Shown piece by piece: positions 1 to 3,488 of a stretch of 64,000 nucleotides of DNA. Origin of the DNA: Escherichia coli (GTDB taxonomy: Bacteria > Pseudomonadota > Gammaproteobacteria > Enterobacterales > Enterobacteriaceae). The notes beneath the pieces were generated by a model. That model searched no databases. It saw only the letters and a program-made list of their open reading frames with translations, and was not told where the DNA came from. Location of the stretch: the NCBI RefSeq assembly GCF_016026235.1, contig NZ_CP065613.1, one strand, 5' to 3'. Made by a program: the position numbers and the translations under genes. How positions within the stretch are numbered: the stretch's first letter is position 1; each line of letters begins with the position of its first letter.

Positions 1-685
1 CACCGGAAGAGAGGATCACCCATGGCATATTGATATGGTCATTCAGACGTTGTGAAGCACAGAGAAGCTCTTGTTGCGAACCTTTGCCATAAAGCGGCAT
101 TTCAACTTTGTAGAGGTCAGCGCCACTGTCGCCCAGCTCTTTGGCGGCATCGATGATCGCTTGTTCGCGATCGAATTTATCGCCACGACGCGGTGGGCGG
201 ACGACTGGCTCAATGATGCTTACCAGACCGTGTGAGTGGCACAGTTCGTTGAACTCTCTCACCATATCCAGACGTTGCTGCGCATCTTCATCACTACGCC
301 ACAGCACCAGCAGTTTTAAGGCTTTGCCACCGTCTTGTTTGATCTGTAGCGGATTGATTTTGCGGTCAATAACCACGCTATCGACCGGAATACCGTTGCC
401 AGGAATGAACTCATCGGCGGCGACAATCATGGCGCAACTTTTGGCAATCGCGTTTTGCTCAACCACCTGGCGGTAGCAGAATTGTTGATCTACCAGAATC
501 GCCGAGGCATAAGGCGAGAGGGCCTTTGCAGCGTTAACTTTGAAATCAGTTAAAACGCTATCGGCTACCGGAGCGGGTGCCCCAGCCGCGGCAAACATCA
601 TGCGCATGGCTTCGCGCTGATCGACCGCCAGCATGGCAAAACCGCCCGATGCGCGCGTAATGTCGTTGATGGTGTACTTACTCAT
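1..685 (-). CDS. yihT: 6-deoxy-6-sulfofructose-1-phosphate aldolase, 3' end cut by window edge
   Basis: Reverse-strand frame begins ATG at 685 (MSKYT...); synteny with yihU/yihV/yihW; recalled sulfoglycolysis cluster. Confidence 0.8.
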
Positions 686-708
686 TCATTTATTCCTTTA
701 TCCAGTCG

Positions 709-1605
709 TTACATTTTTACTTTGGCAGTCATCCCGGCACTGACACGGACCTGTTCCAGAATGGCGGACCAGTCCTGGCGACCGCGACCCGCTGCGCGCG
801 CCTGGCTATAAACCTCCCGTGAGGCGGCCCCCAGCGGCATTGGCACATGCAGCTGGTTGGCGACATCAAGGGCGATGCCAAGATCCTTATGGGCAAGATC
901 GATCATGAAGGCGGGAGAAAGATCTCCGCTGAGGACTTTGTTTGGCCAGGAAGTGGTGAAGTGACCTTTACCGGCGGCGGTACCGCTCATCACTTTGACG
1001 GCAACATCGAAGGGAAGATTCAGGGCTTCGCACAAAACGGCGGCTTCTGCCGAAAGCGCATTGAGCGCGATGCTCATGTAGTTGTTGATGAGCTTAACGC
1101 GGATCCCCATGCCCGGACCGCCAGCGTTGATCAACTCACTGCCCATCGCCATCAGGATCGGTGTGGCACGTTCAACTTGTTCAGCGGTGCCGCCAGCCAG
1201 CAGTAACAGAGTACCGGTAATGGCATTTGCAGAAGTACGGCCTACCGGAACATCCATCATGCTGAAGCCTTTGGCTTGCATATCGGCAATCAATTTATCG
1301 GTTTGCAGCGGATGGATGGTGGACATATCAATGACCAGCGCATCGGTAGATAAGCCTTCGCAAACGCCGTTTTCACCGAACAACACGTTGCGCACCAGAT
1401 CGCCATTCGGCAACATGGTAATGATAAATTCGGCATCTTTAGCGGCCTGCGCCGGGTTGGCGGCGGGAGTCGCACCTTTGTCTACCAGATGCCGCACAGC
1501 TTCGGCGTTCACATCAAAGACGCGAAGTTGATGCCCTTGCTGCAATAAATTGCTCGCCATTGGCGAACCCATTTGTCCTAAACCGATAAACGCGATTGCT
1601 GCCAT
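709..1605 (-). CDS. yihU: 3-sulfolactaldehyde reductase (beta-hydroxyacid dehydrogenase family)
   Basis: 298-aa ORF; N-terminal Rossmann motif AFIGLGQMG; position next to yihT. Confidence 0.9.
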
Positions 1606-1772
1606 AACCCTCTCCTGAATACAGTGATGTCACTTTTTGTCATTTATGACATGCTTTTCTTGTCTGTTTTTGATCGTATTTGTAATTTATCGTCAAAAAA
1701 TTGACAGCCGTCACTTTTTAAACAATTGGTGAAATTAAAATGAACGCATCCCAAAATGTTTAAGGAATGACC

Positions 1773-2669
1773 ATGATTCGTGTTGCTTGTGTAGGTATAA
1801 CCGTGATGGATCGCATCTATTACGTGGAAGGGTTACCGACGGAGAGCGGTAAATACGTGGCGAGAAATTATACGGAAGTTGGTGGCGGGCCAGCGGCGAC
1901 GGCAGCGGTTGCGGCGGCAAGGCTGGGGGCGCAGGTCGATTTTATTGGTCGCGTAGGTGATGACGACACGGGCAACAGCCTGCTGGCAGAGCTGGAATCC
2001 TGGGGCGTTAACACCCGTTACACCAAACGGTATAACCAGGCGAAATCTTCGCAATCCGCCATCATGGTGGATACCAAAGGCGAGCGGATAATCATTAACT
2101 ACCCCAGCCCGGATCTGCTGCCTGACGCAGAGTGGTTGGAGGAAATTGATTTCTCTCAGTGGGATGTTGTGCTGGCAGATGTACGCTGGCACGACGGCGC
2201 TAAAAAAGCCTTCACCCTGGCCCGTCAGGCGGGTGTGATGACCGTTCTGGACGGGGACATTACGCCGCAGGATATCAGTGAGCTGGTGGCATTAAGCGAT
2301 CACGCGGCCTTTTCAGAACCGGGTCTGGCGCGCTTAACGGGCGTGAAAGAGATGGCCAGTGCGCTAAAACAGGCACAAACGCTCACAAATGGTCATGTCT
2401 ATGTGACCCAGGGTAGCGCAGGCTGCGACTGGCTGGAAAATGGTGGGCGTCAGCATCAACCGGCCTTCAAAGTTGATGTGGTAGATACCACAGGTGCGGG
2501 TGATGTTTTTCACGGCGCTTTGGCGGTGGCGCTGGCAACAAGTGGGGATTTAGCGGAGTCAGTCCGCTTCGCCAGCGGTGTAGCGGCGTTAAAATGCACA
2601 CGCCCCGGTGGACGAGCCGGGATCCCTGACTGTGATCAAACCCGATCTTTTTTGTCACTTTTTGTATAA
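1773..2669 (+). CDS. yihV: 6-deoxy-6-sulfofructose kinase (PfkB sugar-kinase family)
   Basis: ORF 1767..2669; start placed at second ATG (1773, MIRVACVG) for better AAGGA spacing; PfkB-type GAGD motif near C-terminus. Confidence 0.85.
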   Translation: MIRVACVGITVMDRIYYVEGLPTESGKYVARNYTEVGGGPAATAAVAAARLGAQVDFIGRVGDDDTGNSLLAELESWGVNTRYTKRYNQAKSSQSAIMVDTKGERIIINYPSPDLLPDAEWLEEIDFSQWDVVLADVRWHDGAKKAFTLARQAGVMTVLDGDITPQDISELVALSDHAAFSEPGLARLTGVKEMASALKQAQTLTNGHVYVTQGSAGCDWLENGGRQHQPAFKVDVVDTTGAGDVFHGALAVALATSGDLAESVRFASGVAALKCTRPGGRAGIPDCDQTRSFLSLFV

Positions 2670-2702
2670 AATGCCAGGGTGATGGTATTTCGAGGAATTT
2701 TC

Positions 2703-3488
2703 ATGAGCCTTACCGAACTAACCGGTAACCCGCGGCACGACCAACTCCTCATGCTGATCGCCGAGCGTGGGTATATGAATATTGATGAGCTGGCAAATCT
2801 GCTGGATGTCTCCACGCAGACGGTCCGCCGGGATATTCGTAAATTAAGCGAGCAAGGCCTGATTACGCGCCATCACGGTGGCGCGGGTCGGGCTTCCAGC
2901 GTCGTTAATACGGCGTTCGAGCAGCGTGAGGTTTCGCAAACCGAGGAAAAAAAAGCGATTGCCGAAGCTGTGGCAGACTATATTCCTGATGGTTCAACAA
3001 TATTTATCACCATTGGTACGACTGTTGAGCATGTTGCCCGGGCGTTACTTAACCATAATCATTTGCGGATAATCACCAACAGCCTGCGTGTGGCGCATAT
3101 TCTTTACCACAACCCGCGCTTTGAAGTGATGGTGCCCGGCGGTACGTTGCGCTCTCATAATAGCGGGATCATTGGCCCTTCAGCGGCGTCCTTTGTGGCT
3201 GATTTTCGTGCTGATTATCTGGTAACAAGCGTTGGGGCGATTGAGAGCGATGGCGCGTTGATGGAGTTTGATGTAAACGAAGCTAACGTGGTGAAAACGA
3301 TGATGGCGCACGCGAGAAATATTCTGCTGGTCGCCGATCACACTAAGTATCATGCTTCGGCGGCGGTTGAAATTGGTAACGTGGCACAGGTCACTGCGCT
3401 CTTTACCGACGAGCTGCCGCCCGCTGCGCTAAAATCACGCTTACAAGACAGCCAAATTGAAATCATTCTTCCCCAGGAAGACGGGTAG
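2703..3488 (+). CDS. yihW: DeoR-family transcriptional regulator of the sulfoquinovose cluster
   Basis: ORF 2679..3488; N-terminal HTH (DELANLLDVSTQTVRRDIRKL) plus sugar-binding-like C-terminal domain; start chosen at MSLTEL. Confidence 0.85.
   Translation: MSLTELTGNPRHDQLLMLIAERGYMNIDELANLLDVSTQTVRRDIRKLSEQGLITRHHGGAGRASSVVNTAFEQREVSQTEEKKAIAEAVADYIPDGSTIFITIGTTVEHVARALLNHNHLRIITNSLRVAHILYHNPRFEVMVPGGTLRSHNSGIIGPSAASFVADFRADYLVTSVGAIESDGALMEFDVNEANVVKTMMAHARNILLVADHTKYHASAAVEIGNVAQVTALFTDELPPAALKSRLQDSQIEIILPQEDG

Follow-up and report, generated by a model that had tools for sequence, protein, structure and literature searches.

The first 3488 nucleotides of the window, a 64,000-nt stretch of Escherichia coli DNA, almost certainly represent the promoter-proximal half of the sulfo-Embden-Meyerhof-Parnas sulfoglycolysis cassette (sulfo-EMP) in its K-12-type "long" arrangement (Table 1). 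The sulfo-EMP pathway of the K-12 cassette (ompL-yihOPQRSTUVW) was first described, according to the papers that cite it, by Denger et al. (2014), and structures of its enzymes are available (PMC8006165). We confirm that the cluster is real but ordinary: it is the standard K-12-type version of a known system.

Table 1. Genes and regulatory features of the cassette within the window.
Feature	Position	Strand	Description	Evidence
yihT	1..685	-	Sulfofructose-1-phosphate aldolase	Translation; near-identity to 7AG1; FDAARGOS_943 annotation
yihU-yihT junction	686..708	-	23 nt, with AAGGA Shine-Dalgarno	Sequence itself
yihU	709..1605	-	NADH-dependent 3-sulfolactaldehyde reductase, 298 aa	298/298 identical to PDB 6SM7
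yihU/yihV spacer	1606..1772	.	Divergent regulatory spacer, 167 bp	Sequence; published CsqR-bound bidirectional promoter region
TGTCACTTTTTGT, copy 1 of 13-mer	1628..1640	+	Candidate CsqR operator element	Motif counts, conservation
Spacer core	1667..1741	.	Conserved, 75 bp	Mean 92% identity to window, 48 Enterobacterales loci
GTCACTTTTT, copy 2 of 10-mer	1710..1719	+	Inside conserved core	Motif count, conservation
yihV	1773..2669	+	Sulfofructose kinase, 298 aa	298/298 identical to PDB 7AG6
csqR block	2627..2672	+	Promoter/operator block over last yihV codons	Conservation without third-position wobble; published csqR start
GTCACTTTTT, copy 3 of 10-mer	2654-2663	+	Within TGTCACTTTTTGT of csqR block	Motif count
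csqR (yihW)	2703..3488	+	DeoR-family repressor, 261 aa	260/261 identical to K-12 CsqR

Of 5426 complete E. coli genomes searched, 5423 gave a chromosomal match to window positions 1-3700. The nearest is FDAARGOS_943, with one mismatch in 3700 nt (at 1678, inside the spacer); the annotations under this match are yihT, yihU, yihV, csqR, and yihX. Direct comparison also shows that FDAARGOS_943 carries an IS1 that is absent from the window. Against K-12 MG1655, 13 of the 3700 positions differ (3687/3700 nt identical, 99.6%). The K-12 cassette has the same genes, order, orientation, and csqR-yihX flank, with identical YihU and YihV proteins. The window departs from it by N2S, K143R, and P203S in YihT, by the single change A261G in CsqR, and at 2 of 167 spacer positions. 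All four genes are intact within the window, with zero to three amino acid changes each.

The original prediction had named these genes yihT, yihU, yihV, and yihW, and all four assignments hold, given their near-identity to characterized proteins. Every residue published as catalytic or as part of a sulfonate pocket is present wherever its codon lies in the window (residue list from PMC8006165). As predicted, the window cuts yihT: the start codon lies at 683-685 and codons 1-228 of 292 are included, leaving the C-terminal 64 codons, among them Arg253, off-window. The fragment is identical to PDB 7AG1 at 225 of 228 residues (98.7%) and contains Ala26, the Schiff-base Lys193, and the phosphate-site Ser226 and Ser227 of the class I SFP aldolase YihT. 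In FDAARGOS_943, whose residues 1-228 equal those of the window, the sulfonate/phosphate-binding residue 253 is Arg. A tagatose-1,6-bisphosphate aldolase (LacD/GatY-like) was rejected: the best NCBIfam model, NF009498, scored 91.6 bits against a cutoff of 184, and although this query was partial, identity to the YihT structures is decisive. The sequence of the short junction between yihU and yihT indicates that the two genes are tightly coupled in an operon.

Alignment of YihU and YihV to the characterized enzymes gave complete identity. YihU contains Arg123, Asn174, and Ser178 and scores 603 bits with NCBIfam NF012005 (cutoff 348). YihV has Asp13, Lys27, Ser95, Asn109, Arg138, Asp162, and Asp244, and its sulfonate pocket (Lys27-Asn109-Arg138, as defined in PMC8006165) is complete. 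Assignment of YihV as a ribokinase (RbsK) was rejected, with 172.7 bits for TIGR02152 falling below the cutoff of 299.65. The ATG starts at 1773 (yihV) and 2703 (csqR) are the ones kept from genus to genus, and the Shine-Dalgarno sequence before each is conserved as well. Longer open reading frames were rejected for both genes: an ATG at 1767 for yihV, on cross-genus conservation and because crystallized YihV begins MIRV at 1773, and a GTG at 2679 for csqR, on conservation.

CsqR matches the DeoR/GlpR family, and its effector domain matches DeoR (7L6L). The residues that PMC10991401 discusses are present, as is Met25 (codon at 2775-2777), reported to serve as the alternative start for the short CsqR isoform. 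Like GlpR, AgaR, DeoR, and UlaR, CsqR combines an N-terminal winged helix with a DeoR-type C-terminal sensor domain. It also resembles them in repressing adjacent catabolic operons, in forming oligomers on multiple operator repeats, and in being released by a pathway sugar. It differs in that its score falls below every equivalog cutoff of the family (the GlpR model comes closest, at 256.6 bits with a cutoff of 331) and in that its effectors are sulfosugars.

Our own analysis covers what the genes are, which key residues they encode, how they are arranged, and where the regulatory DNA lies and how conserved it is; enzyme activities, CsqR binding and inducers, and transcription starts are taken from the K-12 literature. 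On this basis, the off-window YihS would isomerize sulfoquinovose to sulfofructose, which YihV would phosphorylate with ATP. YihT, via a Schiff base on Lys193, would then cleave sulfofructose-1-phosphate into DHAP, which would enter glycolysis, and sulfolactaldehyde, which YihU would reduce with NADH to 2,3-dihydroxypropanesulfonate for export. CsqR would bind in a cooperative manner both in the yihU/yihV spacer and at a second site immediately ahead of csqR, repressing yihUTS, yihV, and csqR, until released by sulfoquinovose, sulfoquinovosyl glycerol, or sulforhamnose; CRP would bind the same regions. Growth on sulfoquinovose, DHPS excretion, and yih induction by sulfoquinovose are published for K-12 only (PMC12608037). 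No evidence contradicting the sulfo-EMP assignment was encountered.

Kaznadzey et al. (2018) proposed a different physiology: yihT, yihV, and yihS, along with the way they are regulated, would serve mainly a secondary catabolic route tied to lactose, and not sulfoglycolysis. In support, lactose is reported to induce yihT, yihS, and yihV, and yihT to have a lactose-specific promoter (PMC5816610). However, the kinetics of the enzymes show selectivity for the sulfonated intermediates, and their structures contain pockets dedicated to the sulfonate (PMC8006165), the residues of which are present here; later papers also report gel shifts in which CsqR stayed on its DNA when lactose was added. We therefore consider a mainly lactose-related role very improbable, and sulfoquinovose breakdown remains our preferred function.

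The original prediction placed the isomerase, sulfoquinovosidase, and transporter genes upstream, outside the window. Their presence in this strain is strongly supported, if indirectly, by the nearest genome, by genome counts, and by the csqR-yihX junction; the support is indirect because the window is not identical to FDAARGOS_943, differing by one spacer SNP and the IS1. In FDAARGOS_943, yihS, yihR, yihQ, yihP, and yihO all lie upstream and are annotated intact. Among the 5426 complete E. coli genomes, 4023 have K-12-type yihTUVW and 4020 have yihQ-yihS DNA. The architecture of minus-strand yihU facing away from plus-strand yihV-csqR, with yihS, yihQ, yihP, and yihO upstream, also recurs in most of ~55 loci from ~20 enterobacterial genera. 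No displaced copies of upstream yih genes (including yihS, yihQ, yihO, and yihP) occur elsewhere in the 64-kb window. The Salmonella enterica yih cluster (SeYihT, 7AG7/7NE2) has the same architecture and regulatory core, with proteins 86-93% identical.

The genes could instead belong to the "short" cassette of Nissle 1917 and B2 strains (PMC12608037), in which case none of yihS, yihQ, and yihO would lie upstream and the cassette, as reported for that form, would not be induced by sulfoquinovose (PMC12608037). About 1400 of the 5426 complete genomes lack the K-12-type genes and carry this other cassette at the locus (PMC12608037). The short cassette likewise sits between typA and yihX; its genes for the regulator, kinase, reductase, and aldolase, and its divergent spacer too, are homologous to those of the window. 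However, it lies in reversed orientation, its proteins are 67-72% identical to those of the window, whose DNA is 99.6% identical to K-12, and in place of yihS, yihQ, and yihO it carries a Zn-dependent alcohol dehydrogenase, two MFS transporters, and an epimerase. In the short form, the regulator faces typA and the epimerase gene adjoins yihX, whereas in the window, as in K-12, csqR adjoins yihX. Sequence identity and gene order thus rule out the short cassette, to which we give practically no credence.

A second concern about the K-12-type reading is that the cassette is present but its pathway is decaying or non-functional in an IS-rich lineage, possibly with insertions in off-window members. 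IS1 interrupts ompL in FDAARGOS_943, which may leave the lineage with a defective porin, and both this genome and the window have IS1/IS3 copies a few kb away. Nevertheless, the four in-window genes are intact and near-identical to K-12, yihO through yihS are annotated intact in the relative, and the uptake of a small sugar probably does not depend on an outer-membrane porin. Decay is therefore unlikely.

The yihU/yihV spacer was expected to hold the regulator-controlled promoters, and published work bears this out: the region contains divergent promoters and binds CsqR (PMC5816610, PMC8006165, PMC8249747, PMC12608037), binding having been detected by gSELEX and EMSA (PMC8249747, PMC8006165, PMC12608037). 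The window's spacer is identical at 165 of 167 positions to the K-12 fragment of the published binding assays, and both differences (1626 and 1658) lie outside its conserved core. Transcription starts mapped in K-12 (PMC5816610) correspond to window positions 1746-1748 for yihV and to 1620, 1630, 1640, 1667/8, and 1687-1697 for yihU.

The 75-bp core is far more conserved than its surroundings. In the same comparison of 48 loci, identity to the window was 73% for the yihV coding sequence, 48% for yihV third codon positions, and 56-66% for the remaining spacer. The core contains TTGACA (1701-1706), an imperfect inverted repeat, AAAAAATTGACA-GC-CGTCACTTTTTA, centered at 1707.5, and TAAAAT (1736-1741), which is likely the -10 element of the major yihV promoter. 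The center of the inverted repeat appears to coincide with the midpoint of the published yihU -62/-63 and yihV -25/-27 starts. A sigma-70 consensus scan of 1-3700 found none of the mapped promoters and nothing in the spacer; its sole match lay inside yihV on the wrong strand. Promoter placement therefore rests on the published K-12 mapping, since the scan misses these non-consensus promoters. Terminator-scan matches were at chance level and all within coding regions, and an Rfam scan of 1-4200 at E<=1 returned no match.

We also find a second regulatory block, absent from the original prediction, over the last yihV codons. Unlike the yihV codons upstream of it, this block is kept without third-position wobble. 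It contains a CRP-like half-site (TGTGATCAAAC), TGTCACTTTTTGT at 2653-2665, and a -10 element, TATAAA, at 2665-2670. The published csqR start at -27/-28 corresponds to window position 2675/2676, with a CRP site at -41.5 (PMC5816610). A second promoter under CsqR/CRP control, that of csqR, therefore lies within the 3'-terminal part of yihV.

The two CsqR-bound regions share a repeated word. The 10-mer GTCACTTTTT occurs three times in the 64 kb, at 1629-1638, 1710-1719, and 2654-2663, only in these regions (0.13 expected; three copies were reached in 0 of 100 shuffles). The 13-mer TGTCACTTTTTGT is the only long word common to both CsqR-bound fragments, and a common word of that length was reached in 1 of 1000 shuffles. 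Copy 1 is flanked by a conserved direct repeat, TGTCA-N5-TGTCA. From these sequence patterns, the repeated TGTCA/GTCACTTTTT elements may be CsqR contact sites and form a candidate operator.

The same elements might instead be recurring CRP half-sites or promoter UP/-35 elements, an explanation that is somewhat improbable but deserves serious weight. In its favor, GTCACTTTTT is similar to TCACAtttt, the right half of the CRP consensus, both regions are bound by CRP (PMC5816610), and a weak CRP-like site (ATTGA-N6-TCACT, three mismatches) includes the copy at 1710-1719. However, CRP-like matches at <=3 mismatches occur in the window at chance frequency (205 found, 223 expected), copies 1 and 3 have no matching CRP left half-site at the right spacing, and no other long word is common to both CsqR-bound fragments. 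The CRP consensus scan therefore does not discriminate a CRP role of the repeated motif from a CsqR one.

FDAARGOS_943 differs from K-12 MG1655 in two off-window features: the IS1 in ompL and an extra TauE/SafE-family gene between yihQ and yihR. The TauE/SafE-containing cassette is absent from K-12; it occurs in several other genera as well as in E. coli, where 1287 of the 5426 genomes have it and O157:H7 is an example; a representative of Salmonella enterica diarizonae likewise has a TauE gene between yihQ and yihR. A 2025 survey of cassette variants makes no mention of the TauE-containing form.

We tentatively propose two things, with only a modest chance that both hold. First, CsqR may recognize the three copies of GTCACTTTTT (two of them within TGTCACTTTTTGT, at 1628 and 2653) together with the approximately helically phased TGTNA repeats of the 75-bp core. 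Second, and as a separate matter, the cassette of this strain may be of a third form, in which a gene for a TauE/SafE-family exporter sits between yihQ and yihR. Recognition elements for CsqR were not found described in the literature searched, which did not extend to Shimada et al. (2019; PMID 30372406).

Sulfoquinovose, a plant sulfo-sugar, ranks among nature's most abundant organosulfur compounds; its breakdown by enterobacteria of the gut and the environment has the yih cassette as its model system. Our small additions, mainly of interest to those working on yih regulation, are a deeply conserved, mapped regulatory core, a candidate operator word found at each of the two CsqR targets, and a TauE-containing variant of the cassette that is common. 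If the proposal is true, the repeated elements would account for the cooperative, polymer-like binding of CsqR, and the TauE/SafE-family protein could be the real DHPS exporter in strains that carry it.

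The four genes at the start of the window belong to the sulfo-EMP cassette of E. coli proper, and not to a related one. YihU and YihV are each identical at 298/298 residues to characterised enzymes (3-sulfolactaldehyde reductase, PDB 6SM7, and sulfofructose kinase, 7AG6, respectively), and the 228-residue YihT fragment matches sulfofructosephosphate aldolase 7AG1 at 225/228 positions, with the changes N2S, K143R, and P203S relative to K-12. CsqR, a DeoR/GlpR-family regulator, is identical to K-12 CsqR at 260/261 residues (sole change A261G). Furthermore, YihU passes the NCBIfam equivalog NF012005 (603 bits; cutoff 348), and YihV does not reach the ribokinase equivalog cutoff. 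This near-identity bears out the original prediction, which had assigned all four genes to the sulfoquinovose pathway and proposed alignment to characterised enzymes as a check. The cluster is indeed cut inside yihT by the left edge of the window, and the predicted yihU/yihV spacer (1606..1772) is exact, given the yihV start used here. ATG 1767 was rejected as that start on two grounds: ATG 1773 and its AAGGAA Shine-Dalgarno sequence are conserved across genera, and the N-terminus of crystallised YihV corresponds to ATG 1773. GTG 2679 was likewise rejected for csqR, where the conserved start is ATG 2703.

Coordinates of the yih genes and of transcription starts converted from K-12 mapping
Feature	Position	Strand	Remark
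yihT	1..685	-	runs off left edge; 228 codons inside window
yihU	709..1605	-	298 codons
yihV	1773..2669	+	start ATG 1773
csqR	2703..3488	+	start ATG 2703
yihU starts	~1620, 1630, 1640, 1667/8, 1687-1697	-	PMC5816610
yihV start	~1746-1748	+	PMC5816610
csqR start	~2675/6	+	PMC5816610

All of the cassette's defining features within the window were tested for and are present. The catalytic and sulfonate-pocket residues named by Sharma et al. (PMC8006165) are kept in YihV (Asp13, Lys27, Ser95, Asn109, Arg138, Asp162, and Asp244), YihT (Ala26, Lys193, Ser226, and Ser227), and YihU (Arg123, Asn174, and Ser178). YihT residue 253 lies outside the window; it is Arg in the nearest complete genome, FDAARGOS_943, whose YihT residues 1-228 equal those of the window. 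CsqR Met25, at which a short isoform is reported to begin (PMC10991401), is encoded at 2775-2777. The features predicted beyond the window (YihT Arg253, yihS/yihQ/yihO, and the growth phenotype) are supported indirectly. The locus is an ordinary one, already known.

By megablast, window positions 1-3700 are matched in 5423/5426 complete E. coli genomes, with yihT, yihU, yihV, csqR, and yihX annotated beneath the matches. The top match, FDAARGOS_943, differs only at position 1678, and K-12 MG1655 at 13/3700 positions. This yihTUVW type adjoins yihX in 4023 of the 5426 genomes, and yihQ-yihS DNA is present in 4020. The remaining ~1400 match yihX only and carry a different island there, the “short cassette” described by Kaznadzey et al. 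2025 (PMC12608037). The csqR-yihX junction and 99.6% identity to K-12 place the window firmly in the long, K-12 type. No copy of the upstream yih genes occurs elsewhere within the 64-kb window. Upstream of yihT, FDAARGOS_943, a close relative distinct from the window's own strain, carries yihS, yihR, a TauE/SafE-family gene, yihQ, yihP, yihO, and an IS1-split ompL. The population counts support the earlier inference that the upstream genes are present in the window's strain.

Published work on K-12 (PMC5816610) describes two sigma-70 RNA polymerase complexes on the yihU/V spacer. It puts the main yihV start at -25/-27, the yihU starts at -15, -25, -35, -62/-63, and -82/-92, and a single csqR start at -27/-28, for which a CRP site lies at -41.5. 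CsqR binds both this spacer and DNA upstream of its own gene and represses the transcription units; its inducers are sulfoquinovose, sulfoquinovosyl glycerol, and sulforhamnose, which release it from the DNA (PMC8006165, PMC8249747, PMC12608037). Its binding is cooperative and polymer-like by AFM. The regulator-controlled promoters predicted for the spacer agree with published starts and CsqR binding (PMC5816610, PMC8006165, PMC8249747, PMC12608037). A plain consensus promoter scan did not find the mapped yih promoters, and they are therefore positioned from the K-12 starts in the literature. TAAAAT (1736-1741) and TATAAA (2665-2670) would fit as -10 elements.

We find that the regulatory DNA is strongly conserved. 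Among 61 loci encoding YihV relatives, taken from species-representative genomes, most have the layout yihU(-)/yihV(+)-csqR(+), with yihS, yihQ, yihP, and yihO upstream. When 51 distinct spacers are aligned, one block (1667-1741) is near-invariant from Escherichia to Yersinia. Its mean identity to the window over 48 loci is 92%, compared with 73% for the yihV coding sequence, 48% for yihV third codon positions, and 56-66% for the rest of the spacer. A second regulatory region, absent from the original prediction, lies upstream of csqR (2627-2672). It is conserved without third-position wobble, yet encodes the last YihV residues; the codons directly before it show ordinary every-third-base variation. 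This quantified conservation of the regulatory core is mildly new. Relative to K-12, the yihU/yihV spacer has only two differences (G for T at 1626 and T for G at 1658), neither of them in the conserved core. The first of these gives rise to a palindrome, GTGATGTCAC, beside the first TGTCA repeat.

The two CsqR-bound regions share a candidate operator element. The 64-kb window contains three copies of the 10-mer GTCACTTTTT (1629, 1710, and 2654), all inside these regions (chance expectation 0.13; three copies reached in 0/100 shuffles). The longest word common to both is the 13-mer TGTCACTTTTTGT, at 1628 and 2653, a length matched in 1/1000 shuffles. Degenerate copies lie at 1661 and 1695 (minus strand). 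Together, the copies at 1695-1706 (minus) and 1709-1720 make up an imperfect inverted repeat; its centre, 1707.5, we infer to lie midway between the yihV start and the yihU start published at -62/-63. TGTNA elements (1628, 1638, 1661, 1681, 1691, and 1709), several spaced by roughly one or two turns of the helix, would suit the cooperative binding of CsqR. Part of the signal could instead reflect CRP sites or promoter elements; a crude CRP scan did not separate the CRP and CsqR contributions. The operator-like word is mildly new, but may already be published. In FDAARGOS_943, the yihS/yihR spacer, outside the window, holds a copy of the 13-mer with two mismatches, TGTCGTTTTTTGT (12529-12541 of that genome's yih locus, L001). 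A promoter is reported in the K-12 yihS-yihR spacer, and CsqR may have a third, weak site at this copy.

Elsewhere in the window, fabY and yiiE flank a low-GC islet that K-12 lacks (6400-10000; 36-45% GC, compared with ~52% in the surrounding DNA). Its 614-codon ORF (6853-8697, TTG start) has no Pfam match; in FDAARGOS_943 the 3' third is annotated “transposase”, and the ORF is interrupted by an IS1, at the equivalent of 7368-7377, that the window lacks. An IS3-family element (10150-11507, minus strand), also absent from K-12, lies between yiiF and fdhE. It comprises an HTH ORF and an rve integrase-core ORF; the annotation of FDAARGOS_943 includes a programmed frameshift here. The only zero-mismatch CRP consensus core in the window, TGTGACAAATATCACA (17547-17562), is at the start of an ORF (17515-18348, plus strand) beside the formate dehydrogenase O genes.

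Outside the window, a cassette form containing a TauE/SafE-family membrane protein gene is common in E. coli (1287/5426 complete genomes, including O157:H7; absent from K-12), a mildly new observation. In FDAARGOS_943 this gene (L001 10642-11517; Pfam PF01925, 121.8 bits) is flanked by yihQ and yihR, and the IS1-split porin gene ompL is at L001 4483-5553. Among the enterobacterial loci compared, 12 carry the TauE-family gene, and other genera have it at two alternative positions, either that seen in FDAARGOS_943 or between yihP and yihQ; in these loci it never occurs together with ompL. This form is not mentioned in the 2025 survey of two cassette variants, long and short (PMC12608037). The protein may export DHPS or a sulfonate.

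The short cassette is not a simple truncation. In strain H105 (369-8927 of its locus, L003), it is in reversed orientation and replaces yihL, yihM, and yihN. Its regulator, kinase, reductase, and aldolase are 67-72% identical to the window's proteins, and it adds a Zn-dependent alcohol dehydrogenase, two MFS transporters, and an aldose 1-epimerase. This gene content suggests that the short cassette of B2-type strains encodes a distinct sugar pathway.
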